Shown here piece by piece: positions 44,415 to 62,664 of a stretch of 64,000 bases of DNA. The notes beneath the pieces are model-generated. The model was given only the letters and a program-made list of their open reading frames with translations. It ran no database searches and was not told the origin of the DNA. Location of the stretch: the NCBI GenBank assembly GCA_040755995.1, contig JBFMAF010000044.1, forward strand, positions 1 to 64,000, written 5' to 3'. Each line of letters begins with the position of its first letter. Position 1 is the first letter of the stretch. The translations under genes and the position numbers were made by a program. The DNA is from Acidobacteriota bacterium. Its GTDB lineage: Bacteria > Acidobacteriota > CAIWXX01.

Positions 44415-44648
44415 ATGAAAACCATTGCAGTGTCTATTGACGAGGCATCGCTTGAGCGTCTGGACCATCTCGCGGCAGCCGGCCGGCGCCGACGGCGCTC
44501 AGCACTCGTCCGGATCGCCGTTCGCGAATACCTGGATCGAGCGATGAAGCAGGATGCCGAATCGCGTGAGAGCGAGATACTCCACAGGCACCGCCACCGG
44601 CTCGCCCGCCAGGCGGCGGCTTTGATCAAGCAACAGGCGGGCCGATGA
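44415..44648 (+). CDS. Ribbon-helix-helix antitoxin
   Basis: MKTIAVSID...RSALVRIAVREYL; ATGA coupling. Confidence 0.8.
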   Translation: MKTIAVSIDEASLERLDHLAAAGRRRRRSALVRIAVREYLDRAMKQDAESRESEILHRHRHRLARQAAALIKQQAGR

Positions 44649-45019
44649 ACCGCGGTGAGATCTACCGCACGCACGTGCGCGTTCCAGAACGGGGAGACAA
44701 GCCCGGGTTCTATGTAATCGTCTCCCGTACCTTCATCGCCCGCCATCCCGATGTGTCGACTGTCGTTTGTGCGCCGGTGTACAGCGAAGTCCTGGGGCTG
44801 GCCACGGAGGTTGTCATAGGGCCCGACGAAGGCGTGCCGCGTACTTCAGCGATCCGTTGCGATTTCCTGACGCTCATGTTCAAGAACGAGCTCACGCGGT
44901 TCGTGGCGACCCTCTCCATCCGTAGGATCGACGAACTGAATCGGGCCCTCGCTCACGCGCTCGATCTCCCGCGTGGCGTCACCGGGCCGTCCGGTGCTAC
45001 CGGAGGTCACGATCTGTAG
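44645..45019 (+). CDS. PemK/MazF-family toxin
   Basis: MNRGEIY, VVCAPV, SAIRCD, ELNRAL. Confidence 0.8.
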   Translation: MNRGEIYRTHVRVPERGDKPGFYVIVSRTFIARHPDVSTVVCAPVYSEVLGLATEVVIGPDEGVPRTSAIRCDFLTLMFKNELTRFVATLSIRRIDELNRALAHALDLPRGVTGPSGATGGHDL

Positions 45020-45028
45020 CGCCCACGA

Positions 45029-45898
45029 TCAGCGCAGAAGCATGCCTTCCACCGCCCTGACGGAGGTGGCGTCCGGGCGGAAGTAGAGCGTGCCGCACGG
45101 AATCTCGCGCGCAGCGCGCGAGCAGGTCGCGAGCACTGTGTCGACCACCGCGGGCTCCCACATAGGCGGGAACGCGCGAGTGAACAGCTGCGCTGCGGCA
45201 GCCGCCTCCGGCATGGGTTCGACTCGGCTGAAATCGCCCCGAGCGAGGAAGAGGATCGCGGCCAATCGGCCGCCAAGCGGAGATGCGAACTTGCCTGCGC
45301 CGTGCCATGGCGTCCCGAAGGCCCACAGGCGGCCGCGGTATGGGCGCACCAGCATCCGGTCATCGCTCAGGACAGTTGCGGCGCGATGATATCTCCTCCA
45401 TAGCCGTGCGGTGGTCGTCTTCCCGGCCCCGGACTCTCCGCAGAACAGAAACACCTTGCTCTCGACTGCAACTCCACACGCGTGCACGACCATGAACCCG
45501 CGGGCTGCCGCCGCGTGCTGGAAGAGCACCTCGTCGAGCGGGTAGGACATGGCGAAGCCCCGCAGGCGGCTGTACCGCGACGGCGCGACATGGAGCGTCC
45601 CACGCGTCCGTGCGCGGTCGATCACGAGCACCCGGGCGCGCTGATCGCCGGCGTCGGGTGAGCGAAAGGCGTAGACGAGATCCTCCCCATGCTGGTAGAC
45701 CCGCCACAGGCTTCCGGAGTCGAATACAAGTGCAGCAGGGGAGACTGCGGGAGCAGCCGCTTCAACCAGCTCTAGCCGGATGTCAGCCCCGTGCCCCGGC
45801 ATGAACGGGAGGAGCCGATCTGCGAGCTCGATGGCGCGCGACTCGCGGCGATAGCGAATCGCGAGTGTGATGCCCCCGACGCGGATGCGCTCGATCAT
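45029..45898 (-). CDS. HPr-kinase/PEPCK-like P-loop ATPase
   Basis: VHACGV, GESGAGKTT, LSDD, GTPWHG. Confidence 0.8.
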   Translation of the reverse strand: MIERIRVGGITLAIRYRRESRAIELADRLLPFMPGHGADIRLELVEAAAPAVSPAALVFDSGSLWRVYQHGEDLVYAFRSPDAGDQRARVLVIDRARTRGTLHVAPSRYSRLRGFAMSYPLDEVLFQHAAAARGFMVVHACGVAVESKVFLFCGESGAGKTTTARLWRRYHRAATVLSDDRMLVRPYRGRLWAFGTPWHGAGKFASPLGGRLAAILFLARGDFSRVEPMPEAAAAAQLFTRAFPPMWEPAVVDTVLATCSRAAREIPCGTLYFRPDATSVRAVEGMLLR

Positions 45899-45947
45899 CG
45901 CGCACCGTCAGCAGTGCGTGACACGGCGGCGTGGCATGCACCGCCCC

Positions 45948-47096
45948 TCAGCCTGCCGGCGGACCCGCAGACTTCAGACAGCAGCTCGCATCCGGCGCAT
46001 GCCCGCATGCGTCTCCGAGAATCCCAAAGGTCCGGCGATGAGTCACCTCACAGCACAAGGCCACCTGAGATTCGGGGTCTCCGTGCTCCATCTCCGCAAC
46101 ACCCGGGCAGCTGCCGCAGAGCGGGAGCAACGAGCAGTTCTCACAGATGGATCCGGATTGCCACTTGCGACTCCTGACTCTCGGCAGTAGTTCTTCCCAG
46201 CCGCGCATGAACGTGTCGTCGCGAAGGTCGAATCGGGAGCGCCTGGAGAGGAGGCAGAGCAGGAGATTCCCGTAAGGGTCGACCGTGAACGACGAGTGCC
46301 CCCCGCCGCATGAGTACACGAACTGGCTCCTCTGTCGATCAGACCCGGAACACAAGACGGTCTCGGCTGACCTGCGGAATCGCTTCTCAGTCGCGGGGTC
46401 GGAAAGGTCGACGGCCGCGAGCCGGTCGGCCGGGAGTTGAAGCTCGGGATTGCGGTTCGCTCCGCAGTCCACGCGCGGGTTGAGCAGCCCGTCGTGGCGG
46501 AACGCGACGCCCAGCCGATGTGCGAACGATCGCATCGCCTCGATTTCGCGCTCGTTCCAGGTCATCACCATCGTCTTGAGCTTGACGTTGATGCCTCGCG
46601 CGAGCATCCCCTCGATGCCGGCGATGCAGCGATCGAACGAGCCGGCGACGCGCGTGATTCGCTCGTAAGTCTCGCGCGTCGCGCCGTACAGGGTCACCTC
46701 GACGCCGATCGGCGGAAGCCTCTGGAACAGGTCCAGCACGCGGTCGGAGACCAGCGTCGCGTTGGTGAAGACGGACAAGCGCAGCCCCCGCCTGACGGCA
46801 TACTCGTAGAGCTCCGCGAAGTCCGGGCGGACGAGAACCTCTCCACCCGTGAGCAACAGACTCACGCATCCGGCGTTTGTGATCTCGTCGATGAGCCTCA
46901 GATGTCGATCGAGCGGGAGCTCGCGATCCCGTTCCACGCCCGCATCCGCCGGCTGATTCACGTAGCAGTGGACGCACCGCAGATTGCACCGGAACGTCGT
47001 CTCGATCGTTCCGCCGAAGGGGATGCGTCGAGTCCGGATTCCGAGCTCGTCGAGGAAGTCGGAGACGTGCACTTCGCGAACGGGCATCGCGAACAT
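45948..47096 (-). CDS. Radical SAM/SPASM peptide maturase
   Basis: CNLRCVHC, TGGE; SPASM CGGG...VDPYGNLLLC and CENC..LCGSCP. Confidence 0.9.
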   Translation of the reverse strand: MFAMPVREVHVSDFLDELGIRTRRIPFGGTIETTFRCNLRCVHCYVNQPADAGVERDRELPLDRHLRLIDEITNAGCVSLLLTGGEVLVRPDFAELYEYAVRRGLRLSVFTNATLVSDRVLDLFQRLPPIGVEVTLYGATRETYERITRVAGSFDRCIAGIEGMLARGINVKLKTMVMTWNEREIEAMRSFAHRLGVAFRHDGLLNPRVDCGANRNPELQLPADRLAAVDLSDPATEKRFRRSAETVLCSGSDRQRSQFVYSCGGGHSSFTVDPYGNLLLCLLSRRSRFDLRDDTFMRGWEELLPRVRSRKWQSGSICENCSLLPLCGSCPGVAEMEHGDPESQVALCCEVTHRRTFGILGDACGHAPDASCCLKSAGPPAG

Positions 47097-47098
47097 GG

Positions 47099-47284
47099 TC
47101 AACTGCCCAACGCTATGTTGATGAGCAAGCCGTCGCGCCGGCAGACGCCGGGCGCTACGAGCACGGCCTTGCAGCCGGCTGAAGCCATCTCGTCGGCAGC
47201 GAGTCTGATTCGGCGGATCTCCGGCGGCTCGTACGCTTCCTTCGTCGTCCCTGTCGCGTCCTTGTTCTCTATTTCCTCAGGCAT
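47099..47284 (-). CDS. Putative RiPP precursor peptide
   Basis: 61 aa; YEPPEI RRE-type leader motif; core AGCK...VC...GS; AAGGAG RBS; abuts the rSAM gene. Confidence 0.75.
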   Translation of the reverse strand: MPEEIENKDATGTTKEAYEPPEIRRIRLAADEMASAGCKAVLVAPGVCRRDGLLINIALGS

Positions 47285-47328
47285 GCGTGCTCCTTGCGTC
47301 GGAGCCCTCCTATTTCACCCCACTGCCT

Positions 47329-50300
47329 TCACCAGCTCAATTCGAGAGACGGATCTCCCAGCAGACTCCACCCGTCGACAACCGGCTTCAGCTTCGCGTC
47401 TGACCGCAGCGCTTTCTCCTTCGCTTCTCGCAGAGCTTCGCCCAGAGTCATCCCCTTGCCGAGATTGTCGTACAGCTGGACGTAAAGGGTTCGCTGGAGC
47501 GTCGGATCAGTGATACCAGTCGGCCCCACCGAGGCGATGGCGCCGCCTTTGGGCAGCAGCAGCAGTGCCTCGTTTATCGTCGGCCCTGTGGCGAGCTGGT
47601 ACCACTGCACCTCGCATGTCCAGGTGAACAAGACGGTATTCCCTCTCGATCCAGCCAGGGTCGCCGCATCGTCCACTGCCAATAGTCCGTCGTCGGACCA
47701 GATCTCGAAGCTCCCGTGCCCGAAGAAGTGCGTGGCCTGGGCGCCCGACTTGAGGCTGTAGAGCAGGTTCGATCGCGCCTGGTCCGCACCCGATTCGATG
47801 TTCGCCCAGACGAGGCGGGCCCGCGACGGCAGGTGATTCGCCGCTTCCGCCGCTGCCTGGTAGAACGACGGGTCGGTCGGACCCTGGTTGTCGACTGCGA
47901 TGATGTGCCGGCGGCGCGCGTTCTCATCTACAGGCGCGCTCGCGCGGCTCGTAATCTTGTCAGCCATCGCCTGGGCCTCGTCAACCGTCGATACGGGGAG
48001 CCGACCGATCGCCAACTCCGGCGACCCATCACCGTCGGTGTCCGCGTACTTGTTCTCGGACGGGACTCGCCCGAACACGTCGTCCCAGCCGTTGAGCGAC
48101 GGGATGAACGACACGTGCCCTCTTCCCATGAAGTCGCGCGGATCGTAGGTGTCGTCGCCCACGAGAAGCACGTATTTCATGTTCCGGCGATTCGCCTGCC
48201 GTATCTCGGCGATCATGGACTTGATCGCATTGGGTTCCACGACACCGCTGCTGAACCGGTCATATGCGCGTTCTGCATTCACGACCGAAACGCGGTACTT
48301 ACCTCGCTTCGCTGCTCCGATCTGCTCGGCCTGACTCCCAAAGGCGCCGTGAGTCGCTATGAGGTACTCGGTGCCGTGCGGGTTCAGAGAGAGGTCGGTG
48401 TTGTACGGAGCGATCCGGTCGGCGTGAACCTCGTCAGTTGGAGCCGCCAAGGGGAAGCCCATGTCCACGACGTCGATGAACGCGAGCGCCCCGTCGGTGG
48501 GCCCGGAAACATCGGCGGAGTAGACGAAGGCGATCTTGTTGCCTGTCTTGTTCAGAGCACCGCCGGGTATCTCGCCCCAAATCTCGCCCGTGGTCTTGCC
48601 GCGGAACGAGACCTGCCCCACGCGGTTTCCATTGATCCAGGCCTCGATCGTGTGCGTGTGATCCGTGCCTCCCACTACACCGATTCGAACCGGGATCGAG
48701 CCGGCAGGCGGAGCCGCGAGCGACGGCAAATCGAATGACAGCTCATCCGGCGGGAACCAGGTCGACAGGAAGTTCCAGACCCACGGGTCGCCTCCCTGCG
48801 CAATGAAAGGCGCGTAGAACAGGTTCTGCTCGACGCGGGTGCCGCCCGGGAACTCGGCGAACCCGGACTTCGTGAAATGCACGGACGGTGCCGGAGCCGT
48901 CGCCGCGCCCCAGGTTACGACATAGACGTTGCGCGAGCTGTAGTCGGTCGCGAATGCTGTCGACACAAACTCGATTGTGGCCGCGCCGCCCGCGTCTTTG
49001 AGCACGTTGAATCCCACCACCTGGCCCAAGTTAGTCAGGCGGAGCTGCTCCGGTGTTGCTGCGTATTCGGCGGGAAGGCCAGCCGCGACCAGATCGGCAA
49101 CGGGCACACGCACGATGCCGACGCGAGAGACCTCCAGCTTCAGGGCCGTCACAGCGCCGCCGCGCTCGATGAGCGTTCCGGCCTGCGGCACGGGTGTCCG
49201 TGCGGGCAGTGACTTCTCGGCAAGCCGTTGCTCGACGAGCTCCAGCTGCCGGGCGAGCACCGAGCTCTCCACGGGGAACGGTCCCAACATGCGAGTCGTG
49301 CCGCCGCACTCGATCTCTTCGATCAAGATGAATGGCTCGTTGATCGGCCGCGTGTTCACCCGGTAGACTTCCGGCTCGAGTATGGCCAGCGGGTTGGCTG
49401 GGACCGGCTCGTTCGAGATCAGCTCGACATCAGCCTGGCCGAACGGATCTGATGTCTGGTAGATGTTGAAAGCCGCTGATGCAAACTGCGACGCCGTCGC
49501 GAACTCGACGAAACCTCCCCTGTTCACTCGAACACCCATAATCCGTGCCCACGTCGGCGCATTCGGGTCGTCGCACAGCCGAACACCCGGGATGTCGCTG
49601 AGCGTCACAGCCGTCTGGCTCACGCCGGTGGAGCCCGGAGTGGCGCCGAAGGCATCGAGCGCGGTCGTGGTAGTGCCGTTGACGCCACCCGATACGTCAA
49701 TACCAGCGGAGCCGCTGGACAGCAGGACAACGCCGCCACCACCCCCGCCGCCGGGGCCGTGGCGAGCGCCTGGGTAACTGCCTGGAGCCTGCAGCGGCCA
49801 TGCATCCGCGCCGCCGCCGCCGCGAGCCTGCACGGTGAGGCCAGTCCAGGTCCCGGTCGGGGCCACCACGACCACCGTTCCGCCCGCGCCTCCACCACCC
49901 CCGCCGTCGTTTTCCGGAGTGATCCCGGAGATATCACGTCCCCTACCGTTGGCCGTGATCGTGCCTGTCCCAGTCACCTCGTACGCACGTATCAGGACGG
50001 TCCCTCCTCCTGGTCCCCCGCTCGATGCATTGGCGATAGTAGGCGAATTGTTCCGGGTCCCGGCCCCGCCGCCTCCGCCCATCGCTATGCGAGCGTTTGC
50101 GCCGGTTGCATACGGGAAGGTGGCTCCCTGGTGGCCGCCCCTGTCAAGATCGCTGTTCCAGGTGCGTCCCCCGCGCCCGCCGAGGCCTCCGTTTCCACCA
50201 CCGGCACCGCCGCTGTTCTCGTCGTTGGCAGCCGGATTCCCATCGGTTCCGCCGCCACCGGCGTTGCCGGGTGCGCCTCTGGCATTCGATCCATTCGTGT

Positions 50301-51105
50301 ACCCCTCGACACCCATGTCCGAGATGATCGTCCCGTCGAATACGTACCTTGGCGTACCGGCAATGCTCTCGCCCTTTGCGCCGTTGTTGTCGTTGGTCGC
50401 GACCGTGCGGTAGTCGGTGCTCGCACCTGTATCGCCCGTCAGTTGTCGGCCGCCGCCACCCGCAAAACCGAGCCCGTCCACACTGACGGTGCCGCCCAGA
50501 GTGAGCGTCCCGCTCACGTCTATGGCAAGCACGCCGCCGACAGCTCCGTCCCAGAGCAGCGCAGTGAGCGTCGAGCTGAGCGTGGCACTTCTGTATCGAG
50601 GCACGCGCATGAGTTGCCAGGTCCTGCGAGGTGTCGCTGTCAGGAGGCTCTGCCTGTAGGAATGGAGTAGCCCGTTGCCGGCGCCCGCACCGGTGATGTC
50701 GACCCAGCCGGCTCCGCTCACTGCGCTCTGTGCGACAAGGTACTCAAAGTAGCCCACCCTGTTCAGGTTGGTCTGGCCGTTCGCCGGATCGCTGGCCACG
50801 CCGTCGCCGTATAGATTGCTTTGCGACGCGTTGATGTCGGCGTCCTGCATCTGCATGATGAGCAGCATGTCGCCGGCCGCAATTGCCGGGTTTCCGGACG
50901 GGTAGATGGATCCGTAGACACGGACAGACGTGGCACCGGCTGCAGGACTGTTCCGTCCCTGATAGTAGCTGTTGACGATCCCGCTGAGGGTCCCGCCAGC
51001 CGGCAGCGTGTCGCACGGGCCGGCCTGGAGCCCCGCGGGCACTAACATGACCACCGAAGTAAGTATCCCGAAGATACTTCCAAGTGGCGTATGATGTCGT
51101 CTCAT
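47329..51105 (-). CDS. Large secreted protein: Gly-rich domain plus gingipain-like (C25) cysteine peptidase
   Basis: Signal peptide; GGGGGAG runs; YVLLVGD, IGRLPV, FGHGS, WTC, WSLLGDP. Confidence 0.85.
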   Translation of the reverse strand: MRRHHTPLGSIFGILTSVVMLVPAGLQAGPCDTLPAGGTLSGIVNSYYQGRNSPAAGATSVRVYGSIYPSGNPAIAAGDMLLIMQMQDADINASQSNLYGDGVASDPANGQTNLNRVGYFEYLVAQSAVSGAGWVDITGAGAGNGLLHSYRQSLLTATPRRTWQLMRVPRYRSATLSSTLTALLWDGAVGGVLAIDVSGTLTLGGTVSVDGLGFAGGGGRQLTGDTGASTDYRTVATNDNNGAKGESIAGTPRYVFDGTIISDMGVEGYTNGSNARGAPGNAGGGGTDGNPAANDENSGGAGGGNGGLGGRGGRTWNSDLDRGGHQGATFPYATGANARIAMGGGGGAGTRNNSPTIANASSGGPGGGTVLIRAYEVTGTGTITANGRGRDISGITPENDGGGGGGAGGTVVVVAPTGTWTGLTVQARGGGGADAWPLQAPGSYPGARHGPGGGGGGGVVLLSSGSAGIDVSGGVNGTTTTALDAFGATPGSTGVSQTAVTLSDIPGVRLCDDPNAPTWARIMGVRVNRGGFVEFATASQFASAAFNIYQTSDPFGQADVELISNEPVPANPLAILEPEVYRVNTRPINEPFILIEEIECGGTTRMLGPFPVESSVLARQLELVEQRLAEKSLPARTPVPQAGTLIERGGAVTALKLEVSRVGIVRVPVADLVAAGLPAEYAATPEQLRLTNLGQVVGFNVLKDAGGAATIEFVSTAFATDYSSRNVYVVTWGAATAPAPSVHFTKSGFAEFPGGTRVEQNLFYAPFIAQGGDPWVWNFLSTWFPPDELSFDLPSLAAPPAGSIPVRIGVVGGTDHTHTIEAWINGNRVGQVSFRGKTTGEIWGEIPGGALNKTGNKIAFVYSADVSGPTDGALAFIDVVDMGFPLAAPTDEVHADRIAPYNTDLSLNPHGTEYLIATHGAFGSQAEQIGAAKRGKYRVSVVNAERAYDRFSSGVVEPNAIKSMIAEIRQANRRNMKYVLLVGDDTYDPRDFMGRGHVSFIPSLNGWDDVFGRVPSENKYADTDGDGSPELAIGRLPVSTVDEAQAMADKITSRASAPVDENARRRHIIAVDNQGPTDPSFYQAAAEAANHLPSRARLVWANIESGADQARSNLLYSLKSGAQATHFFGHGSFEIWSDDGLLAVDDAATLAGSRGNTVLFTWTCEVQWYQLATGPTINEALLLLPKGGAIASVGPTGITDPTLQRTLYVQLYDNLGKGMTLGEALREAKEKALRSDAKLKPVVDGWSLLGDPSLELSW

Positions 51106-51546
51106 CCTACCCCCCTATCCTTGGGCAGCAGGTGCCCTCGCTGATTGCGATGTTGCCCTCTGTTTGACTGCTCAAGATTAAACTGCAACAAATAGAAGCA
51201 TAGCATATTACTCGAATTCTGGAAAGAGCCCGCGCTCGCTCGCCCGCTCGCCCGCTCGGCATGTCGGCTGGGAAGCAGGAGTTGCGGAAGAGGCTCAGGC
51301 AGGCCGAGTGACGTGGGCGTCGCCCGCAGCTCATCGGACTACTGGGGACCGTGCCGGCAAATCGGACATCCCCGCCACGCATGTGTGCCCCGCGGGCGCC
51401 GCGTTAGATATCAGAGACTTGCGCTCAGCCTCGGTCCTTCACGCAGGCTGTATGTCCGAGAGCCGGACATTCAGAGTCAAGCCCACAGGACGAGCGAACA
51501 GTGCTAACTCATAGAGAATCCAGTACTTGCGCGGCATCCGGCACGC

Positions 51547-51562
51547 TGGCACGGGCCTTGCT
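51547..51562 (+). promoter_or_regulatory. Sigma54 -24/-12 promoter
   Basis: TGGCACG-GGCC-TTGCT, exact consensus spacing. Confidence 0.7.
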
Positions 51563-51701
51563 CTACACCGGGCAGGAGGTAGCAGAGATGGACAAGCGGA
51601 TGAGAGAGGAAGCGAGGACATCAACGGGCGCCGCAGTCGTTGGCCGCGGCGAACAGGCTACCTCGAGATTGGTCGTAACGGAGCGCAGGGAGGAGATGAC
51701 A

Positions 51702-52952
51702 ATGAACAGAATCGCTGGACTGATGGTGCTATGCCTGGTTCTCTTCGGTTGGAGTGCGCAGGCAGCCGAGACAACTGAGAAGAACGGTCTGCCCGAGCAG
51801 GTCCGCTACCACGAGACGGTGATCGCATTCTCGGGGGCGGAGAGCAACGCCTCCGGTCAGACTTCTTTTTACGCCTTTGGCCAGGAGTTCGTGCTGAATC
51901 TCGAGGCCATGAATGATCTCGCGTCCGATGAGGCGGATAGGCGAAGCATTCGTCGACCTGAGGAGGCCCTCTACAGAGGTACAGTCCAGGGCGATGACGG
52001 TTCGTGGCTGCGCGGCAGCATGACCGGATCGGTGTTCGAGGGCGTGATTCACACGAGCAACGACGACTACTTCGTCGAGCGCGCTTCGAGACACTTCGCC
52101 GACAGGCCCGATGACGAGATGATCATCTATCGCCGTTCCGATTGCGACTCAGGGTGGGAAGCCTTGGCCGGCGGCCCGATCCCCGTGATCGCCAACATCA
52201 CCAGCACGCAGCCGGGCATGGCTACGATCTACGGCTCGGGCTTCTCCGCCAATGCTCCTGAAGTCCGCGTCTTCTTCGGTGGCTACTTCGCGCCCCTGAA
52301 GAGCACCAGCCGTTCCGCCATCGTCGTCAAGATCCCCTCCGGCGCGCTCCGGGCCGGCACAGTGGCCGTCCACGTGGTCGTGAAGGGCGTGTGGAGCGAC
52401 GGCTACTACTTCCGCTTCGGGCAGAGCGTTCCGTCAGGGCCGGCTCCCGTCATCACAAACGTCACCAGCACGCAGCCGGGCATGGCTACGATCTCAGGCT
52501 CGGGCTTCTCCGCCAACGCTCCTGAAGTACGCGTGTTCTTCGGCGGCTACTTCGCACCCCTGAAGAGCACCAGCCGCACCGCCATCCTCGTCAAGATCCC
52601 CTCCGGCGCACTCCGGGCCGGCACAGTGGCTGTGCACGTGGTCGTCAAGGGCGTATGGAGCGACGGCTACTACTTCCGCTTCGGGCAGAGCGTTCCGTCA
52701 GGGCCGGCTCCCGTCATCACAAACGTCACCAGCACGCAGCCGGGCATGGCTACGATCTCAGGCTCGGGCTTCTCCACCAACGCTGCTGAAGTACGCGTGT
52801 TCTTCGGCGGTTACTTCGCACCCCTGAAGAGCACCAGCCGTTCCGCCATCCTCGTCAAGATCCCCTCTGGCGCGCTCCGCGCCGGCACGGTCGCCGTGCA
52901 CGCGGTCGTGAAGGGCGTGTGGAGCGACGGCTACTACTACAGCGTGCGCTAG
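51702..52952 (+). CDS. Secreted protein: M12-type metalloprotease prodomain-like region plus three IPT/TIG repeats
   Basis: AFGQEFVLNLE...LYRGTVQGDDGSW...FEGVI...YFVE; three 88-aa repeats; no HExxH. Confidence 0.65.
   Translation: MNRIAGLMVLCLVLFGWSAQAAETTEKNGLPEQVRYHETVIAFSGAESNASGQTSFYAFGQEFVLNLEAMNDLASDEADRRSIRRPEEALYRGTVQGDDGSWLRGSMTGSVFEGVIHTSNDDYFVERASRHFADRPDDEMIIYRRSDCDSGWEALAGGPIPVIANITSTQPGMATIYGSGFSANAPEVRVFFGGYFAPLKSTSRSAIVVKIPSGALRAGTVAVHVVVKGVWSDGYYFRFGQSVPSGPAPVITNVTSTQPGMATISGSGFSANAPEVRVFFGGYFAPLKSTSRTAILVKIPSGALRAGTVAVHVVVKGVWSDGYYFRFGQSVPSGPAPVITNVTSTQPGMATISGSGFSTNAAEVRVFFGGYFAPLKSTSRSAILVKIPSGALRAGTVAVHAVVKGVWSDGYYYSVR
52182..52941 (+). repeat. Intragenic tandem repeat, about 3 x 264 bp
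   Basis: Units start at 52182, 52446 and 52710 and are near identical. Confidence 0.9.
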
Positions 52953-53129
52953 CGCATCGATAGACTCCTCCTCCAAAATCAGGCCTCGGGCGTCGAGAGA
53001 TCGAAACCCGGGGCCTGAAGCGTTTTTGAAGAGCGATAGGAGCAGGTTGGCAGCCGGCATTCGTGAGTGGACGTGGAGACGCGTGGACACAGAGACGCGG
53101 TGAAGGGATCGCCCACCCGGTCGCCGGAT

Positions 53130-53450
53130 CTAGCCGGCCGTCCGATCGGTGCGCTTGACGACCTTCACTGACTCGAGCTGCGCCAGGAAGCGGCGGTAGT
53201 CATCGGCGGCCTGGTCGACACCCACATCGAAGCGGCCGGTCATCTCCTTTACGATCTGCTCACCGGTAGTCTCCCCATCCAGTCGTTCCCAGATGAACGA
53301 TCCAACGCGGTTCAGGTGGAAGATCGAATCGAGGTCGGCTCCTTTGGCCACGATCGGAACCAGGACGAACTCGCCGGCGATGTTCCGCGCAACGACGTTC
53401 GGATCGCGGGCGAAGGCGGTCTCCAGCGTCGCCGGGGCGTCCTCGGTCAC
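53130..53450 (-). CDS. PqqD-family RiPP recognition element (RRE)
   Basis: VVARNIAGEFVLVP, FHLNRVGSFIWERLDG, FLAQL; GTGA coupling to the upstream gene. Confidence 0.88.
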   Translation of the reverse strand: MTEDAPATLETAFARDPNVVARNIAGEFVLVPIVAKGADLDSIFHLNRVGSFIWERLDGETTGEQIVKEMTGRFDVGVDQAADDYRRFLAQLESVKVVKRTDRTAG

Positions 53451-53902
53451 AGGCCACGGTTCCGCAGGGCTAGCCGCAGCCGCGTCCGGAGTCCGCGGCA
53501 CAGTGAGCGCACAGCGACAGCCGGGCGTGATCGAACGGTGTCGGGCTGCGGTCCCTCGACCGCCACCACGGTCCCCAGCACATCTCGGGGCGACACCCGC
53601 ACATCCCAGACCTGGGCCCTGTCCGCCATGGTCCTCCACGAAGAAGTCGCGCGCGCGATGGGCGGGCCCCAGATCAGGCGGTGAACGCGAAGCCCCGCTG
53701 GCTGCCGCACCAGAACCAGGTCGCCTATCCGCGGGCGCCGGAGCGTCGTGCCGGCCACGCAGACAGTGTCTCCCGGTGAAAGCGCTGGCTCCATGCAGCC
53801 ACCCGTGGTCCTCAGACGGACATGCCGGAAGGCCGACAGGCATTGGCGGATCACGCCGTCAGACAACTCGCGCGAGGCATCCAGCGTTAGAACATCCGGC
53901 AT
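53447..53902 (-). CDS. S24/S26 signal-peptidase-like protein
   Basis: TGGCMEPALSPGD, GDLVL, VHRLI, TMAD, VLGTV. Confidence 0.75.
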   Translation of the reverse strand: MPDVLTLDASRELSDGVIRQCLSAFRHVRLRTTGGCMEPALSPGDTVCVAGTTLRRPRIGDLVLVRQPAGLRVHRLIWGPPIARATSSWRTMADRAQVWDVRVSPRDVLGTVVAVEGPQPDTVRSRPAVAVRSLCRGLRTRLRLALRNRGL

Positions 53903-54281: not shown

Positions 54282-57281
54282 ATGATTCAACTCTTGGTCT
54301 CGGACCGAACGGCGCGCGTCAAGTCCGTGACGAACCTCTTCATCAGGACGCTGCTGCGGCTGATGGCGGCGAATTTCAACCACCGCCGCTCTCTGCGAGA
54401 GTACCTGCGGAGCGATCAGGGGTGGATCAACTTCTCGATCGGCTTCCGCACCGACGGCGGCTCGGTCGAGACGGGCATGATCTTCCGTGACGGCCGCGTG
54501 CAAGTCATCGGAGGCATTCCCGAGAACGCGAATGTCATCCTGAGCTTCGACTCGGACCGGTCGCTCAGGAGACTGCTCTCGGCTACGCCGACCGAGCAGG
54601 TGTTCATGATTCTCAAGAGCCGCCTGAAGTACGAGGGCAGCTCCGCCTATCTCAACCTTTTCTTCTTTCTCCTTTCTCTGCTCATCATCAAGAAGCAGAA
54701 GAAGCTGATGGAGAGGGAGCGTCGCGAATCGAAGCGAAATCTGCTGAAGCAATCGCCCGCGGCCAGGACGGAGCTCAGCACGGAGCTTCAGGCGAGGCGG
54801 GCATATCGCATGAAGGCCGAGTCGATCGATCCGGGTGTGAAGTACTTGAAGGAGCCGTATCTTTCGGAATACTCACTCGACGATTTCCCGCGGGTCAAGC
54901 AGTTCTTGGATGACCACTTTGCGGTGAAGGCCGAGGTCTGCCCGGAGCTTCCGAAGCTGCTCACCGACTGGCACAAGAGATACGGCTTCGAGATCGACCA
55001 GGCGGGCAAGCCATGGGTTCCCGTCTCAAGGAAGGCCCATGCACACAAGTACATGATGGAGAACCGGAAGCCCATCATCCACAAGAACGACCTCATCGCC
55101 GGCACGACGACCTCGAAGGATGTCGGTGTGGTCGTCTACCCCGAGGGGCACGGGACGATGATCTGGTCGGAGCTACTCACGGTGCCTCACCGGTCGCTCA
55201 ATCCGTACGACGTGAGCGCAGAGACCGTACAGATACTGCACCACGAGGTGTTCCCTTACTGGGCCGGGCGCAACTTCAAGGAATGGGTGCGCGAGAAGTA
55301 CCAGCGACCGCTCTGCCAGAAGATCGACGAGCGCTTCGCGGTCTACTTCGACTGGAAGTCGGTGACGATCTCGCACACTGTCCCGGATTTCCCCAAGGTC
55401 ATGCGCCTGGGTGCTCGCGGCATGATCGAGGAGATACGGGCGGAGCTCGGGTCAGGCGACTGTGACGCCGAGAAACGGGCCACGCTCGATGCGATGGTCC
55501 TGGTTCTCGAGGGCCTCACGACATACTCCAAGAACCTGGCGCGACAGGCTGGTCGCGAGGCGGATGCCGAGTCCGATGCGAGGCGAAAGGCGGAGCTCTA
55601 TCGGCTGTCGGAGATCTGCGCGCAGGTGGTGGAGAACCCGGCGCGCACCCTGGATGAGGCGGTCAACGCCATGTGGATCACATGGGTGGGGCTGCACCTG
55701 GAGAGCACCAACGCGGGTCTCTCGCTCGGCAGGCTCGACCAGTGGCTCCAACCGTACTTCGCGGCAGACATCGCGAAGCTCCAATCGGACGAGGAACGCG
55801 AGGAATACGTCCGGCGCGCAATCGAGCTTGTCGGCTGCTTCTACATGCGCTCGACCGACCATCTGCCGCTCACCCCCGACGTCGCCAACTTCTACTTCGG
55901 CGGCAGCTCCTCGGACCAGGCGATCACGCTTGGCGGCGTCACCCCCGACGGTGAAGACGCCGTCTGCGACATGACATACATCTTCCTCAAGGTCACCGAG
56001 ATGCTCTCCATCCGCGACCCGAACGTCAACGCCCGGTTCCATCCCGGCAAGAACAGCGACACGTATCTGAAGCGGCTCTGCGAGGTGAATCTCATCACCT
56101 CTGCCACACCGTCGATGCACAATGACGAGGTAGTCATGACCTCGCTGCGGCAGTTCCCTTACGACGAGCGCGATCGCCGCAACTGGGCCGCAACCGGCTG
56201 CGTCGAGCCCACGTTGTGCTCGAAGCACATCGGCCATACCAACATGCAGATGATGAACATGGTAGCTGCGCTCGAAATGGCCTTGAACAACGGCAGGCAT
56301 CCGGTGATGAATTGGAAGCTCGGTCCGGAGACCGGTGAGATCGAGAACGGAACCTTCGAGACCTTCGACGGCTTTTTCGATGCCTTCACGACTCAATTCA
56401 AATTCCTGATCGACCAGTCGATCCAGTACAACAACATGCTGGCCGAGGCCCATCAGTACCTGCGGCCTACCCCCCTGCTCTCCTCGCTCATCGGCGGGTG
56501 CATCGAGAAAGGCCGCGACGTCACCAAGGGAGGCGCCGTATACAACAGCTCGGGTGCGGCCATCATCGGGCTCGCCGACGTCACCGACTCCCTCATGGTC
56601 ATCAAGAAGCTGGTCTACGATGAGAAGAAGGTCACCTTCGCCCAGCTCAAGCGGGCGGTCGACTCGAACTTCGAGAATGCGCCTGCGCTCTACGCCATGG
56701 TCACCAACAAGGTCCCGCTCTTCGGATCGGGCAGTACCGAGGCTGTGGCCATGGCCAACCGCGTCACGAAGTGGGCGCACGACTACTACTCGAGCCTGCC
56801 GCACTACCGCGGCGGCAAGTACACCGTAGGGTTCTGGTCGATGTCCAACCATGTCATCTACGGCACCCTCACCGGCGCTCTGCCGTCGGGCCGGCGCGCC
56901 GGGAAGCCCTTCACCCCGGGCCTCACACCCCAGCCGTGCGCGTCCCGCAACCTCCTCGACAACATCAAAGACGTGGCCATGCTCGACCCGGCCAACATCA
57001 CCAACAACATGGCGTTCAACGTCAAGGTAGTCCCGCACAGCGGCGACCCGCGTGAAAAGACCGTCAGCCACATGTTCTCGTACGTCAAGTCGTACTTCCA
57101 ACTGGGCGGCATGCAGATGCAGATGAATGTCGTGACCTCCGATACGCTCCGGGATGCCATGGCCCACCCCGAGAATTACCGCAACCTGCTGGTGCGCATC
57201 TCCGGCTACAACGCCTACTTCGTTACCCTCAACCGGGACATGCAGATCGAGCTCATAGAGCGCGCGGAGTACGGGTTGTGA
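54282..57281 (+). CDS. Glycyl radical enzyme with N-terminal SCP2-like domain
   Basis: SLGRLDQ, TGCVEP Cys loop, LLVRISGYNAYF glycyl motif; extra ~150 N-terminal residues. Confidence 0.9.
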   Translation: MIQLLVSDRTARVKSVTNLFIRTLLRLMAANFNHRRSLREYLRSDQGWINFSIGFRTDGGSVETGMIFRDGRVQVIGGIPENANVILSFDSDRSLRRLLSATPTEQVFMILKSRLKYEGSSAYLNLFFFLLSLLIIKKQKKLMERERRESKRNLLKQSPAARTELSTELQARRAYRMKAESIDPGVKYLKEPYLSEYSLDDFPRVKQFLDDHFAVKAEVCPELPKLLTDWHKRYGFEIDQAGKPWVPVSRKAHAHKYMMENRKPIIHKNDLIAGTTTSKDVGVVVYPEGHGTMIWSELLTVPHRSLNPYDVSAETVQILHHEVFPYWAGRNFKEWVREKYQRPLCQKIDERFAVYFDWKSVTISHTVPDFPKVMRLGARGMIEEIRAELGSGDCDAEKRATLDAMVLVLEGLTTYSKNLARQAGREADAESDARRKAELYRLSEICAQVVENPARTLDEAVNAMWITWVGLHLESTNAGLSLGRLDQWLQPYFAADIAKLQSDEEREEYVRRAIELVGCFYMRSTDHLPLTPDVANFYFGGSSSDQAITLGGVTPDGEDAVCDMTYIFLKVTEMLSIRDPNVNARFHPGKNSDTYLKRLCEVNLITSATPSMHNDEVVMTSLRQFPYDERDRRNWAATGCVEPTLCSKHIGHTNMQMMNMVAALEMALNNGRHPVMNWKLGPETGEIENGTFETFDGFFDAFTTQFKFLIDQSIQYNNMLAEAHQYLRPTPLLSSLIGGCIEKGRDVTKGGAVYNSSGAAIIGLADVTDSLMVIKKLVYDEKKVTFAQLKRAVDSNFENAPALYAMVTNKVPLFGSGSTEAVAMANRVTKWAHDYYSSLPHYRGGKYTVGFWSMSNHVIYGTLTGALPSGRRAGKPFTPGLTPQPCASRNLLDNIKDVAMLDPANITNNMAFNVKVVPHSGDPREKTVSHMFSYVKSYFQLGGMQMQMNVVTSDTLRDAMAHPENYRNLLVRISGYNAYFVTLNRDMQIELIERAEYGL

Positions 57282-57423
57282 CTCAGGGCTATGCGGGTGG
57301 GCCGGGCGCGTACTGACGACGAAGTCGGGCCAGGAGGGATGCGACGCGGAGACGCGGAGCCACGGAGACGCGGGGAAAGAGAAGAACGCCGAAATGCGGG
57401 GACACGGAGACGCGGTGACGCTC

Positions 57424-58371
57424 ATGAACAGCCAGCCGGACCTCGGCGCCAGGCCCGGGACGGAGCGACCGCCGCTGCTGTTCGAGATCAAGGGCAACTC
57501 GCTCGATGACGGCCCGGGCATCCGAACGGTCGTCTTCTTCAAGGGCTGCCCGCTCAGGTGCCGGTGGTGCCATAACCCCGAGGGTATGCGCGCAGGTCCC
57601 GAGATTTCGTACGATGCCGGCAAGTGCGCCTCTTGCGATCAGTGTATCGCGCTATGCCCGAAAAAGGCGCTCGCGCGCGACAACCCGCATTTCGTGGACC
57701 GTGAGCGTTGCGATCTCTGCGGCGAGTGCTTCGATCAATGCCCTTCCGGCGCTCTGAGAAAGGTCGGCCTCCCGCTCCCTGTCGAGACCGTCGTTGAATG
57801 GGTGCTAAGCGATAGGCCGTTTTTCGACAACTCCGGTGGAGGCGTGACACTCTCCGGCGGCGAGCCGTGTCTCTACATGCACTACGTCTCGCTCTTGGCT
57901 GCGCAACTCCACGAACACGGTATCCACGTGCTGCTCGAAACCTGCGGCTGGTTCGACTACGAGCGGTTCCGGGAGACTGTCCTGCCCCACCTGGACATGA
58001 TCTACTACGACATCAAGCTCTTTGATAGCGCGCCGCATCGCGAGTACTGCGGCGTTCCCAATTCCCTTGTTCTAGACAACTTCACGCGCTTGCTCAGGGA
58101 CGCGAAGAACGGTCGTCCGTCGATCCTGCCCCGCACGCCACTGGTGCCGGGGATCACGGACACCGAGGCAAACCTGCGCGCAATCGCAGGTTTCCTGAGG
58201 GACCAGGGTGTGAGATTCGCGGCCCTCCTAGCCTACAATCCACTCTGGCCGGAGAAGAGCCGCAGCCTCGGCACCGAGCCCGGCCGGAGTCTGGCCGCGG
58301 CGAAGTTCATGAGTCGCGACGAGATCGAACGCTGCAGGCGCATCTTCGCCGCCGCCGGCGTCGAGACGTGA
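57424..58371 (+). CDS. Glycyl radical enzyme activating enzyme
   Basis: DGPGIRTVVFFKGCPLRCRWCHNPE; two CxxCxxCxxxCP ferredoxin motifs; GGGVTLSGGEP. Confidence 0.95.
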   Translation: MNSQPDLGARPGTERPPLLFEIKGNSLDDGPGIRTVVFFKGCPLRCRWCHNPEGMRAGPEISYDAGKCASCDQCIALCPKKALARDNPHFVDRERCDLCGECFDQCPSGALRKVGLPLPVETVVEWVLSDRPFFDNSGGGVTLSGGEPCLYMHYVSLLAAQLHEHGIHVLLETCGWFDYERFRETVLPHLDMIYYDIKLFDSAPHREYCGVPNSLVLDNFTRLLRDAKNGRPSILPRTPLVPGITDTEANLRAIAGFLRDQGVRFAALLAYNPLWPEKSRSLGTEPGRSLAAAKFMSRDEIERCRRIFAAAGVET

Positions 58372-59712: not shown

Positions 59713-60960
59713 TCATCCCCACTGCGCCTTGGCTTGCAGCGACAGCTCTTGGCCCATCGTCTCGAAGTACAACTTGATGTTGTCCGCGGTGAAGACATTC
59801 TGGGTGAGGGCCGCCACCTGTGAGGCGAAATCCTGAGGGTGGAGTGACAGATCTTTAGAAACCGCGTCCCTTAGCTGGTCGAAGTGCCGTCCGTACTGCA
59901 TGCTCCGGTCGGGCACCTCGATCTGCAGTTTGGCCAGCGGGTACCGCTTCTCGTTCTCGATCATCTTGGTGACGCTCTCCATGAAGGCATCCATGCCGGT
60001 CTTGAGCCCGCGCACCAGGCCGATGATCTCCTGGCACGCCTTCATGCCGTCGGCGAAACGGCGGTGATGCAGATTCAGTTGAGCCATCTCGTCGATGCTA
60101 CCCTCGAGATCCGGCCGATCCGGTGTCAGGCGCATGGCGCAGATGTGGCAGAAATGGTTGGATGCCGGGTTGGGAGACGCGCAGCGCGGGCAGGCCGGGT
60201 CGCCGGGTTTCGGCGGTGGAGGCATCGTCGCCTTCTCGAACAGCACCCGCTCCAGCGAGCTGCGCGCTATCACCTGCGATCGGGATTGCTCAAGGTAGTC
60301 TATCTTCGCCTGCACGGCCGCCGCATCGCTCTCGAGCTTCACCCATTCGCCTCGCAGCTCCCGCTCCCGCTCGACACCTTCCGCCTCCGTTTCCTTCCAG
60401 CGCGTTCGCAACGCGTCGATTCGCGCAGCCACGTCGCCCTGTTCCCTGTCCAGCCTCTTCCGCTCGGCTGCCAGCGCCCGCATCCGGAACAGGTTCGAGA
60501 AGAAACCGAATCCGCGGCCCATCTGGCGGATCCGATCGTTGTACCCGCGGATCTGCTCCAGGAGCTTCACGCTGCGAATCTTCAGAGCCTCCTCCTCGGC
60601 ATCCAGCGACGTATTCTTCCGGCGCACCAGCTTCTCCAGCTCCAGCGATCGCCTCCGCCGCTCCTCGGCCTCCTTCGCCAGAGACGCGTGACGTTCCTGA
60701 ATCCGGGCCAACTCCTGATCGAACTCCTTCGTCGCCGCCGCCTCGGCAGAGGTCAGGGCTGCGTCAAGCCATCCGGGCAATGCAGCCCGGCCGGCCCGCA
60801 CATGCCCGTCCAGTTGCCCCAACTCCGCCTCCCTCACCCGCGCGACTTCGCTGAAGAACGACTCGTACTTCGTCTGCAGCGCGCAGAGCTTCTCCTCAGC
60901 CCCCTTGAGCGCATCCCGGCGGCCTGCGAGGTATTTCTCGAAATCACTGAGACGCCCCAT
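59713..60960 (-). CDS. Coiled-coil protein with internal zinc ribbon
   Basis: Long charged heptad-rich region; CPRC...FCHIC. Confidence 0.7.
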   Translation of the reverse strand: MGRLSDFEKYLAGRRDALKGAEEKLCALQTKYESFFSEVARVREAELGQLDGHVRAGRAALPGWLDAALTSAEAAATKEFDQELARIQERHASLAKEAEERRRRSLELEKLVRRKNTSLDAEEEALKIRSVKLLEQIRGYNDRIRQMGRGFGFFSNLFRMRALAAERKRLDREQGDVAARIDALRTRWKETEAEGVERERELRGEWVKLESDAAAVQAKIDYLEQSRSQVIARSSLERVLFEKATMPPPPKPGDPACPRCASPNPASNHFCHICAMRLTPDRPDLEGSIDEMAQLNLHHRRFADGMKACQEIIGLVRGLKTGMDAFMESVTKMIENEKRYPLAKLQIEVPDRSMQYGRHFDQLRDAVSKDLSLHPQDFASQVAALTQNVFTADNIKLYFETMGQELSLQAKAQWG

Positions 60961-60968
60961 TTCTGCGT

Positions 60969-62642
60969 TCACCTGCTCATGTGGGTTACGGTTGGCTGTT
61001 CGTCTTGCATGGGTAAGGCACGGGCATCCGACGCGGAGACACGGGGACGCGGGGATACGGTGAAACCGACCCCGTAGCTCCTCCCGCGCTTGCGCAGCCG
61101 CTCCCAGCTCGCGCGCGCGCGTGTATCCCCGGCGCCGGCCCGCGGGATCTCGCCAAAACCCCCGGCCACGTCCCAGTATAGCGGGCATGCACCCGCGCAC
61201 ACATCCACGTCAGCGCACTCCGTGCATGCCGGCGGCACGTACAGTCTCTTCTTCCAGTACTCCGCGGCCCGGCCGCGCCGGATACTTTCGTACGAGTGCG
61301 TCAGCAGAGACCCGATCCCCTGCGCGAAAGACGAGCACGGCAGCACCTCACCGTCGGGCGCCACCGAAAGTATTCCGCTGACGCATGCGCAGGACTTCGC
61401 ACCGAGCCCGTGCAGGACGGGATTGAAGATGCAGTAGGGGATCGGCGAGTACCACACAAGGCGCACCGATTCGCTGCGAGCCGTGTCCAGCAGTGCCGGC
61501 AGTCTCCTGCCCACCTCCGTGTAGCTCACTTCCATGTCGTCCCTGCTCAACGCAGTGCCGGTGCGGATCACCATGTTCATGGAGATGGTGCCCAAGCCGA
61601 GGTCGCGGCCGGCGAACCGGATGAGATCGTGCGCGGCATCGAGGTTCGCGGCGCAGAGCGTGCTGTTCGTGTGCACATGAATCCCGAGTCGCTGGAAGTG
61701 GCGAATGCCCGCTACGGTCTGTTCGAAGGCCCCCTCGCGCCCCACGATTCGATCGTGGACTTGGGCGCAGCCGGCTTCCAACGAGACTTGGGCCGATGCC
61801 AGTCCGGAATCTGAGAGTAGCCGGGTGTAGGAAAGATCCGCGGCGCGCACACCGTTGGTGATGAGGTTCACCCTGAAGCCGAGCGAAGCGCCGTAGGCGA
61901 TCAGCTCCGGCAGCTCCGGCCGCAACGTGGCCTCCCCACCCGTGAAGCTCAGCGACGGCACATGAGCCTCGTGGAAAATGCGATCCATCACACGCTCCAC
62001 CTCGTCCACCGACATCATCCGATGCTCGCGCGCCCTCAGAGGGCTGGCAGCGTAGCAGAAGGCGCATCGGTTCTGGCAGCCGTAGGTGAGCGCGATCTCG
62101 GCGAGCGTTGGATACCGCACCATGGCGGGCGTGAACGAGCCGAGCCGCAGGTTTGGCGACGGCGAGAAATCCTCGTGAAGTATCCGCCGCAGGGTCTGGA
62201 CGAGCCCATCCGCGTCGGTCACAAGCTGCTCCGCCGGCACACCCACCTCTGATGAGAGCGCGCACAGGACCTCCGCTGCCGGCCGCCCCTCGCGATTGTA
62301 CAGCGCAGCCAGGATCTTGACCGCCGAGTCGTTCAGACCGAGGGTCTTGTCGGGGCGTATCATCAGCAAGCGGTCGACCTGCCGCACGAAGATCGCAGCC
62401 CGAGTCGACTCTACGAACCGATCGATCTCTGAAAGGAGAGGGTGGGTCGATTCGGTCTCGATTGTGGCGTCTTCGGGTCTGCGGCGATTCGAATCCGACG
62501 CGGTGGCGCGGTGACGCGGTGACGCGGAGAGGTCCTCGCACAAATCACCGTGTCTTGGTGTCTCCGCCTCCCCGATTCCCCGATTCCCCGATTCTCCGTT
62601 TCGGATGCGAATCCCCACGCGGCTGCCGATCCCATTCAGCAT
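60969..62642 (-). CDS. Radical SAM/SPASM enzyme with N-terminal RRE-like domain (start uncertain)
   Basis: LGLNDSAVKIL RRE-like motif; CQNRCAFC; TGGE; SCAC...VAPDGEVLPC and CTEC..VCAGACP. Confidence 0.88.
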   Translation of the reverse strand: MLNGIGSRVGIRIRNGESGNRGIGEAETPRHGDLCEDLSASPRHRATASDSNRRRPEDATIETESTHPLLSEIDRFVESTRAAIFVRQVDRLLMIRPDKTLGLNDSAVKILAALYNREGRPAAEVLCALSSEVGVPAEQLVTDADGLVQTLRRILHEDFSPSPNLRLGSFTPAMVRYPTLAEIALTYGCQNRCAFCYAASPLRAREHRMMSVDEVERVMDRIFHEAHVPSLSFTGGEATLRPELPELIAYGASLGFRVNLITNGVRAADLSYTRLLSDSGLASAQVSLEAGCAQVHDRIVGREGAFEQTVAGIRHFQRLGIHVHTNSTLCAANLDAAHDLIRFAGRDLGLGTISMNMVIRTGTALSRDDMEVSYTEVGRRLPALLDTARSESVRLVWYSPIPYCIFNPVLHGLGAKSCACVSGILSVAPDGEVLPCSSFAQGIGSLLTHSYESIRRGRAAEYWKKRLYVPPACTECADVDVCAGACPLYWDVAGGFGEIPRAGAGDTRARASWERLRKRGRSYGVGFTVSPRPRVSASDARALPMQDEQPTVTHMSR

Positions 62643-62664
62643 TCCTGACAGCACCGCGCGACCT

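Follow-up and report, generated by a model that had tools for sequence, protein, structure and literature searches.

The closest characterised pathway to the gene cassette described here is that of the LPP phosphopeptides of Paenibacillus alginolyticus (LppA/B/K/S/D/N), which, like the cassette, combines a YxxP leader with a Glu at Tyr+14, a discrete RRE (RiPP recognition element; RiPP, a peptide made by ribosomes and modified after translation), an HprK-like kinase and a soluble SpI-like peptidase and, like the cassette's relatives, often has an NTP transferase and no lasso cyclase (PMC13381572). The cassette occupies positions 45029-53902 of a 64,000-nt stretch of Acidobacteriota bacterium GCA_040755995.1 (contig JBFMAF010000044.1; hereafter, the window, meaning the whole stretch). 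We propose that it is a RiPP pathway making a cross-linked phosphopeptide for secreted PorU-like C25 proteins, most likely as a transpeptidation acceptor, a reading to which we give a rough probability of 0.4 on sequence evidence. Its biosynthetic part alone, the production of a cross-linked, terminally phosphorylated and leader-free peptide, appears probable. Genes, motifs, folds and co-occurrence are the level that the analysis supports directly.

Comparison with described systems

The cassette differs from LPP in several respects: it adds a radical S-adenosylmethionine (rSAM)/SPASM enzyme and invariant core Cys residues, fixes Ser/Thr at the C-terminus rather than at core position 3, has neither an MsbA-like exporter nor an NTP transferase, and is coupled to a C25 protein. 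In the window's branch Cys replaces Ser as peptidase nucleophile, and the LPP Ser-His-Asp SpI set is absent. The LPP consensus YxxPxVLxHQxIxFETxxS does not fit the window precursor, with only YxxP and Glu in common and Ala36 as the equivalent of core Ser3. The hosts of the cassette are Acidobacteriota and Myxococcota, those of LPP Bacillota. Radical SAM, SPASM and C25 are not mentioned in the main text of the LPP paper (PMC13381572). Phosphorylated lasso peptides (paeninodin, pseudomycoidin, Bsf; PMC6993621, PMC10368454) share with the cassette a terminal Ser, the HprK-like kinase motif and an RRE, and with many of its relatives an NTP_transf_5-type gene, but the macrolactam cyclase, the B2 protease and a conserved ring Asp/Glu are lacking here, and an rSAM and an S26 enzyme are present instead. 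By analogy, the cassette may be likened to an LPP/paeninodin tailoring module plus an rSAM enzyme. With the thioether RiPP enzymes CteB, AlbA and SkfB (PMC6231123) it shares seven SPASM cysteines and an RRE-dependent, Cys-containing precursor; it differs from them in its separate RRE, kinase and S26 partners and SPASM spacing, and the AlbA/StsB models score far below cut-off. The gene combination that marks sacti- and ranthipeptides, a seven-Cys SPASM rSAM enzyme with a Cys-containing precursor, is present.

SynChlorMet is an uncharacterised set of HprK-like, PqqD and rSAM/SPASM genes. The initial annotation had likened the layout to this set and to the HPr-rel cassettes, and the resemblance stands, but in a hidden Markov model search all of these family cut-offs were missed (ScmC 18.9 of 125 bits, ScmD 37 of 100, ScmE 79.8 of 400, ScmF 79.6 of 400; for HPr-rel-A/B, TIGR04352 and TIGR04355, HprK_rel_A 15.8 of 200 and HprK_rel_B 22 of 200), and the cassette has one rSAM gene rather than two. 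The same annotation had passed over LPP as the closest class, the terminal Ser/Thr, the NTP_transf_5 gene of relatives and the S26-like protein's Cys nucleophile. Strict membership in LPP, lasso, SynChlorMet, HPr-rel or PorU was rejected by the tests run, and a literature search, to which subscription journals were largely closed, found no paper on this cassette.

Gene content of the cassette

Open reading frame checks and family searches show that all seven predicted genes of the region are genuine and bear out the minus-strand order and identities first described for them; six, all on the minus strand, form the conserved cassette. The features are as follows.

53447-53902, minus strand: S26-like (SpI-like) soluble protein, predicted leader peptidase; 151 aa, Cys36-His74, family match below cut-off
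53130-53450, minus strand: stand-alone PqqD/RRE; 106 aa, PF05402
51501-52952 (probable start 51702), plus strand: secreted IPT/TIG-repeat protein, inserted, not part of the cassette; PF01833, three copies
47329-51105, minus strand: secreted C25 protein with signal peptide, passenger, boundary domain and PorU-like module; 1258 aa, PF01364
49705-50982, minus strand: Gly-rich passenger region of the C25 protein, residues 42-467, AgmC N-terminal-like; NF047640, below cut-off
49246-49566, minus strand: boundary domain of the C25 protein, ~105 aa, fibronectin/Ig-like, starting at Thr518 (hereafter, PT domain)
47338-48366, minus strand: peptidase C25 catalytic region; PF01364, His1130 and Cys1164
47099-47284, minus strand: precursor peptide, two-Cys subtype; 61 aa, YEPP, with a GGAG element before the ATG
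45948-47096 or 45948-47102, minus strand: rSAM/SPASM enzyme with no fused RRE; PF04055, E 3.7e-25
45029-45898, minus strand: HprK-like kinase; weak HprK_rel/ScmC matches only, kinase motif residues intact

The GTG start of the PqqD gene overlaps the S26 stop codon as GTGA, in line with the translational coupling first noted; the rSAM ATG lies two bases past the peptide stop codon, and 49 bases separate the rSAM and kinase genes. PqqD, C25 and radical SAM passed their Pfam cut-offs. The S26-like protein and the kinase, though below every family cut-off, hold a conserved place in related loci. Family searches of the window proteins found no lasso cyclase or exporter among the cassette genes, as the initial annotation had said, and a promoter and terminator scan of the locus gave a result no better than chance.

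Conservation of the cassette and its link to C25 proteins

Scanning one genome per species with the rSAM enzyme as query yielded 28 loci, 25 in Acidobacteriota, two in Archangium and one in Anaerolineaceae. With the Anaerolineaceae locus left out (32% identity, different peptide), the other 27 (L001-L027; rSAM identity 50-58%) carried in the fetched DNA a peptide in all 27, a kinase in 24, PqqD in 18, S26 in 17, NTP_transf_5 in 15 and C25 in 7. That all 27 close-rSAM loci carry a homologous peptide is more than a chance gene association. A peptide-profile survey of 301 genomes of the window's phylum, with 23 candidates scored per genome, gave 32 matches and places the peptide in at least 29 of the 301 genomes, a lower bound. 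The regions fetched around these 32 peptides, several of them on short contigs, contained rSAM in 32, kinase in 30, PqqD in 28, S26 in 24, C25 in 17 and NTP_transf_5 in 9, and two further C25 genes lay just outside, one in G166 and one in G152, the latter only if its contig wraps. Insertion sequences were seen within two related cassettes (L002:8765-9553 and L023:12085-13107), one of them between peptide and rSAM.

At the genome level, PF01364 was found in 27 of 29 peptide-positive against 103 of 272 peptide-negative genomes of the phylum, in 40 of 40 against 15 of 111 in the class of a Vicinamibacteria genome, and in 11 of 11 against 37 of 190 in the phylum of Archangium (Myxococcota); the phylum and class samples share a few genomes, the counts ignore kinship and genome size, and the C25- and PT-positive genomes of the phylum tally include the unpublished G145. 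Once the 11 genomes from which seed peptides came were set aside, the class sample still gave C25 in 29 of 29. These figures describe a widespread putative RiPP family (at least 29/301, 40/151 and 11/201 genomes of the phylum, class and second phylum) and, together with the locus counts, show the co-occurrence of C25 and S26 genes with rSAM relatives on which the initial annotation had staked its proposal; they support its view of an uncharacterised pathway linked to a secreted cysteine-peptidase protein. C25 enzymes are common in bacteria without an evident type IX secretion system (T9SS).

Among 21 genomes whose peptide locus lacked C25, 20 have C25 elsewhere, and in Myxococcota a C25 domain lies within ~5 kb of 10 of 13 peptide matches. 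In the class sample, 28 of 40 genomes hold at least two C25 copies, and several at least 12, against one or two peptide genes. A hand-picked set of 20 C25 loci was also inspected in peptide-negative genomes, about half of the set selected because a PT domain lay nearby: a kinase, PqqD or rSAM gene was present at 12 of them, an NTP_transf_5-type gene alone at one and none of these at seven. A short peptide with a YxxP leader was readable in 11 of those 12, mostly of two other types, and three distinct precursor families each adjoin C25.

The C25 protein and its PT domain

The C25 protein matches PF01364 above cut-off (201.7 bits, E 2.8e-59) and has the gingipain fold and His-Cys dyad, with His1130 and Cys1164 present in 21 of 21 aligned modules. 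Across the fusions a signal peptide and a variable passenger precede a constant block made up of the ~105-aa PT domain and ~640-750 residues ending with the catalytic region, and in most fusions that are intact ~640-750 aa separate the PT domain from the C-terminus. The passenger reaches 116.6 bits with NF047640 (cut-off 275) and varies in relatives (DUF11, SdrD_B, others). PorU is the sole PDB sequence match and the top fold match of the constant block (model pLDDT, the predicted local distance difference test score, 87.7), the best folds being PorU 6za2 (Foldseek E 7.6e-18) and RgpB. Fold and dyad are those of PorU and the gingipains (PDB 6za2, 4ief); unlike PorU, the window protein scores 140.6 of 420 bits with NF033707, has passenger and PT domain fused in front and ends right after the catalytic region, with no T9SS tail. 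Propeptide_C25 had no match in this fusion.

The PT domain begins at a Thr that 19 of 21 aligned modules retain and that borders a poorly ordered linker, and its model (pLDDT 91) is a fibronectin/Ig-like sandwich. Fold matches were generic beta-sandwiches (best Z 8.0, root-mean-square deviation 3.5, 87 residues aligned), and an Atlas lead to a Por_Secre_tail cluster reached only 0.79. No PDB sequence match, no Foldseek match at E<=0.001 and no named family among 30 Atlas matches was obtained, blanks that do not show a new fold. The domain occurs in 96 of 301 phylum genomes (91 of 130 C25-positive, 5 of 171 C25-negative), much of this being fusion to C25, and it also ends separate secreted proteins that adjoin C25 and kinase cassettes. 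Two proteins of the window genome end in it (C35:131785-133554 and C33:35748-38624), one a subtilase beside a passenger-less C25 on contig C33. The PT domain is a candidate sorting and cleavage signal. PorU severs its cargo from a following C-terminal domain, with cut sites that include Thr/Ser and Pro-Thr/Ala, and links the cargo to an amine, either that of an amino-acyl sugar of A-type lipopolysaccharide (A-LPS) or, when A-LPS is missing, of peptides in the medium (PMC4560394, PMC7468200).

The precursor peptide

The window precursor has a Tyr18-x-x-Pro leader, Glu32, Cys38-Lys39, Cys48, Asn56 and a terminal Gly60-Ser61. A word-index search with it found a single relative, and Atlas searches led to unnamed clusters. 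A profile built from 36 peptides retrieved 1503 cluster representatives at E<=0.001, 45 of them at 1e-10; the best 150 of the 1503 were examined, and 146 remained after four longer than 100 aa were dropped. Glu at Tyr+14 and Cys-Lys at Tyr+20/21 occur in all 146. The last residue is Ser in 142, Thr in three and Gly in one, an apparently frameshifted copy, so that Ser/Thr closes 145 of 146 peptides compared with 11% of 1412 called genes; the profile favours conserved residues but not a stop directly after Ser. All 10 Myxococcota peptides read also end in Ser/Thr.

Three core cysteines are found in 135 of the 146 peptides and two in 10. In the two-Cys subtype, to which the window peptide belongs, Asn usually replaces the third Cys. 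The nine two-Cys loci included in a quick rSAM tree form one branch (Shimodaira-Hasegawa-like approximate likelihood ratio test, SH-aLRT, 95), nested in a 27-row branch (SH-aLRT 100) that holds all Cys-type and no Ser-type S26; long branches elsewhere make the deep part of this tree unsure. By this tree, the window cassette belongs to a derived branch that pairs a two-Cys precursor with a Cys-His leader peptidase. Core Ser3/Thr3 was dropped as a phosphorylation site; Thr or Ser stands there in 57 of 146 peptides, and Ala36 in the window peptide. By the lipobox pattern of bacterial lipoproteins, lipobox-like residues do precede Cys38, but acidic residues lie ahead of them and a hydrophobic stretch is lacking, and the precursor was rejected as a lipoprotein. 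In several Vicinamibacteria-type loci the peptide N-terminus shows an Ala-Val-Thr match to PT-boundary residues, which is not seen in the window locus or most others.

Predicted roles of the maturation enzymes

The stand-alone PqqD (PF05402, 58.1 bits against a cut-off of 23.4, E 1.1e-15) would very probably bind the YxxP leader and present the precursor. The S26-like protein (TIGR02228, 18.6 bits, cut-off 51.85) has no membrane segment, and its Cys36-His74 stand at the positions of LppS Ser29-His68. In readable peptide-bearing loci the nucleophile position is Cys in 18 and Ser in 20, the Ser-type enzymes being the more distant relatives, and this branch appears to have swapped Ser for Cys in a signal-peptidase-fold enzyme. 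The leader is likely to be cleaved off by this Cys-His peptidase, either after Glu32-Met33, in the LPP register, or before Cys38. The second candidate site has small residues at -1 and -3, as the general signal-peptidase rule demands. For the first, LppS offers a precedent as an RRE-dependent leader peptidase that cleaves after E-2/T-1 with His as general base (PMC13381572), and the invariant Glu, in register with LppA E-2 when counted from Tyr, predicts a 28-residue core from Ala34. Before modification, the calculated monoisotopic mass would be 2723.49 for a core of residues 34-61 and 2437.37 for one of residues 38-61. L044:11178-12224 encodes an S26-like domain fused with a GNAT acetyltransferase, which could serve to cap the N-terminus, a step that would argue against a free amine in that locus.

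The rSAM enzyme has Cys39/43/46 and seven SPASM cysteines (265, 283, 320, 323, 329, 332 and 351; a CxxC variant), spaced C-x17-C-x36-C-x2-C-x5-C-x2-C-x18-C. Among family models it scores best with NirJ2, MftC and AhbD, in each case far below cut-off, and its best PDB sequence match is SkfB (E 5.6e-9). In CteB, a SPASM count of seven cysteines is associated with an open site (PMC6231123). On balance we expect this enzyme to cross-link the core through one or more Cys thioethers; in favour of this, the two-Cys/Asn peptides go with one rSAM clade, and core cysteines in a sister peptide family go with the presence of an rSAM.

The kinase motif is intact (His139, Gly154-x-x-Gly157-x-Gly159-Lys160-Thr161, Asp179-Asp180). 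Lasso-precursor kinases carry the same His/Walker A/Asp-Asp motif and several act on a terminal Ser (PMC10368454). Because terminal Ser/Thr is near-invariant, the kinase has a candidate target, and phosphorylation of Ser61 is likely; the family is thus predicted to combine radical cross-linking with terminal phosphorylation. PsmN adds hexoses to a phosphorylated terminal Ser (PMC6993621). Many relatives carry an NTP_transf_5 gene whose product might cap the phosphoserine with a sugar; here, with none in the window cassette and two PF14907 genes elsewhere in the genome, it would need to act in trans. In the same genome, an NTP_transf_5 gene (C23:227000-235300, L057) is flanked by a NusG-like gene, an ABC transporter and polysaccharide genes of the Wzc type.

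Function of the peptide and alternative explanations

The near-constant presence of C25 in peptide-positive genomes suggests that the peptide may fasten C25 proteins to the cell surface, and one small product for many passenger-C25 fusions, with a freed N-terminus and a modifiable C-terminus, fits an acceptor and anchor. The exported peptide probably works with C25 proteins. How it would do so is more tentative: by analogy with PorU on A-LPS, the C25 module could cut at the conserved Thr before the PT domain and transfer the passenger to the freed N-terminal amine of the peptide, whose phosphoserine end would tie it to an envelope glycan. If the peptide is such an acceptor, it would be a RiPP acting as a structural linker, not a weapon or signal, and one half of a new ligase-tag pair. 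The full extension, a T9SS-independent anchoring system with a modified RiPP as sortase acceptor stabilised by rSAM cross-links, an NTP_transf_5-capped phosphoserine joined to envelope glycan, C25 fusions and stand-alone PT proteins as cargo and at least three precursor families, seems doubtful as a whole; it would be a categorically new system and would offer a hint as to the placement of LPP and paeninodin clusters in capsule loci. The roles of phosphorylated RiPPs are stated as unknown in the LPP paper (PMC13381572), and the implication of C25 by the peptide, the PT domain and the candidate cut site together bear on these roles and on that of C25.

Several observations weigh against the acceptor proposal. 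C25 lay inside the fetched region in only 17 of 32 peptide-anchored and 7 of 27 rSAM-relative loci, and NTP_transf_5 was present in no more than 9 of 32 and 15 of 27, the window cassette having none. Peptide-positive genomes are larger and related, so the counts overstate independence, and the link runs one way, with C25 lacking the peptide in 103 of 272, 15 of 111 and 37 of 190 genomes. A single kinase query matched 6 of 15 C25-positive, peptide-negative genomes, left 9 of 15 without a match and found none in 15 double negatives. As published, the core genes of LPP include this kinase, peptidase and NTP transferase but no C25 (PMC13381572). Within the proteins, the conserved Thr could be structural, the predicted mature N-terminus (Ala-Ser or Cys-Lys here) shows no consistent match to the (GS)(VLI) acceptor preference of PorU, and an additional conserved Cys (Cys213), lying upstream of the SPASM motif by ~50 residues, could occupy the open site in some family members. 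The cassette lacks an exporter, and PorV was not found in the window genome by a search whose control worked; searches for SprA and Por_Secre_tail found nothing there, and nothing in the control either.

The same one-way dependence and one-peptide-to-many-C25 ratio would be expected if the modified peptide were not ligated and instead regulated C25 enzymes, as a latency inhibitor during export or as an activator or cofactor. A constrained Cys-rich core suits a binder, and the window fusion has no Propeptide_C25 match, yet regulation leaves the terminal Ser, the NTP_transf_5 enzyme and the stand-alone PT proteins unexplained and many C25 genomes have no peptide, and we consider it unlikely. C25 might conversely be a late maturation enzyme that trims, cyclises or releases the peptide outside the cell, the product being a diffusible signal or weapon; its dyad is invariant, and its gene often shares the operon's orientation, in the window lying immediately ahead of the peptide gene. 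The cassette already contains a leader peptidase, though, immunity and exporter genes are not conserved, and large, variable, adhesin-like passengers and as many as 12 or more C25 copies per genome are needless for one 28-residue substrate, which leaves this idea slightly less credible still.

An rSAM-bearing LPP analogue acting on envelope polysaccharide, independent of C25 and PT and found with them through shared surface-biogenesis islands and large genomes, would account for the 15 of 32 loci without C25 in the fetched region and for relatives close to Wzz/Wzc, Wzy or polysaccharide export genes; LPP and paeninodin clusters likewise sit in capsule loci without C25 (PMC13381572). Such independence is rather improbable given that no peptide-positive genome lacked C25 in the class (0 of 40) or in Myxococcota (0 of 11), that C25 lies so close to most Myxococcota peptides (10 of 13), and that each of three precursor families adjoins C25. 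Finally, the short open reading frame may not encode the final product, with rSAM and kinase having another target or the peptide serving, largely unmodified, as an Fe-S or metal-binding helper. Two or three invariant Cys residues and the NirJ2/MftC/AhbD models as top rSAM scores, far below cut-off, fit that idea, but the cassette has the LPP anatomy of RRE-binding YxxP leader, stand-alone PqqD, SpI-like soluble peptidase and variable core, and peptide type follows the rSAM tree, and we regard the idea as very improbable.

Other cassettes, the inserted gene and neighbouring genes

The two other precursor families are a sister (YxxP...GPA) and a third, Ser-terminated type (YxxP...EARA...C...GPxxS or similar), and both are present in the window's own genome, on contigs C33 and C50. 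In the sister family (L088-L094), the four copies adjoining rSAM have two core Cys and those of three loci without rSAM a Cys-free, Tyr-Gly-rich core; S26 is fused to a nucleotidyltransferase in L090 and L091. In each of the third-family loci L096, L099 and L103, the C25 gene is followed by one for an extracytoplasmic function (ECF) sigma factor. The C33 cassette (C33:35745-45100, L029:3746-13097) encodes a 71-aa YxxP peptide, rSAM, HprK-like kinase, Ser-type S26 and PqqD, together with a passenger-less C25 with propeptide and a subtilase that has a PT domain at its end. The C50 cassette (C50:1-2700, L030) has a 61-aa WxxP peptide with two Cys and a Ser end, PqqD, HprK-like and S26 genes at the contig end, and an rSAM gene whose start looks broken or frameshifted. 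A lasso-like set in the same genome (C12:5759-15900, L056) comprises PqqD-like, Asn synthase (Asn_synthase), HprK, NTP_transf_5 and B2 transglutaminase-like (Transglut_core3) genes and a YxxP peptide of 51 aa, interspersed with glycosyltransferases and a fusion of family 2 glycosyltransferase (GT2) and rSAM.

The opposite-strand gene that the initial annotation placed among the cassette genes is real and is an insertion outside the unit, because it has paralogues elsewhere in the genome, is matched in none of 58 other cassette loci and is missing from the closest relative locus (L043), which has an otherwise identical gene order and five enzymes at 55-67% identity. It carries three 264-nt IPT/TIG repeats (52173-52964) and belongs to a multi-copy family of secreted IPT/TIG-repeat proteins; its unnamed N-terminal domain is common to the C37 and C41 copies in the same genome.

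Beyond the cassette, a PemK/MazF-like gene (44645-45019) converges on the kinase gene. Divergent from the cassette on the other side (54282-58371) are a 999-aa glycyl-radical (pyruvate formate-lyase-like) enzyme with an extra N-terminal region and its likely activating enzyme. Another rSAM/SPASM protein is encoded at 60969-62723 and contains a weak PqqD match, and next after it is a 415-aa coiled protein with no Pfam match (59713-60960).

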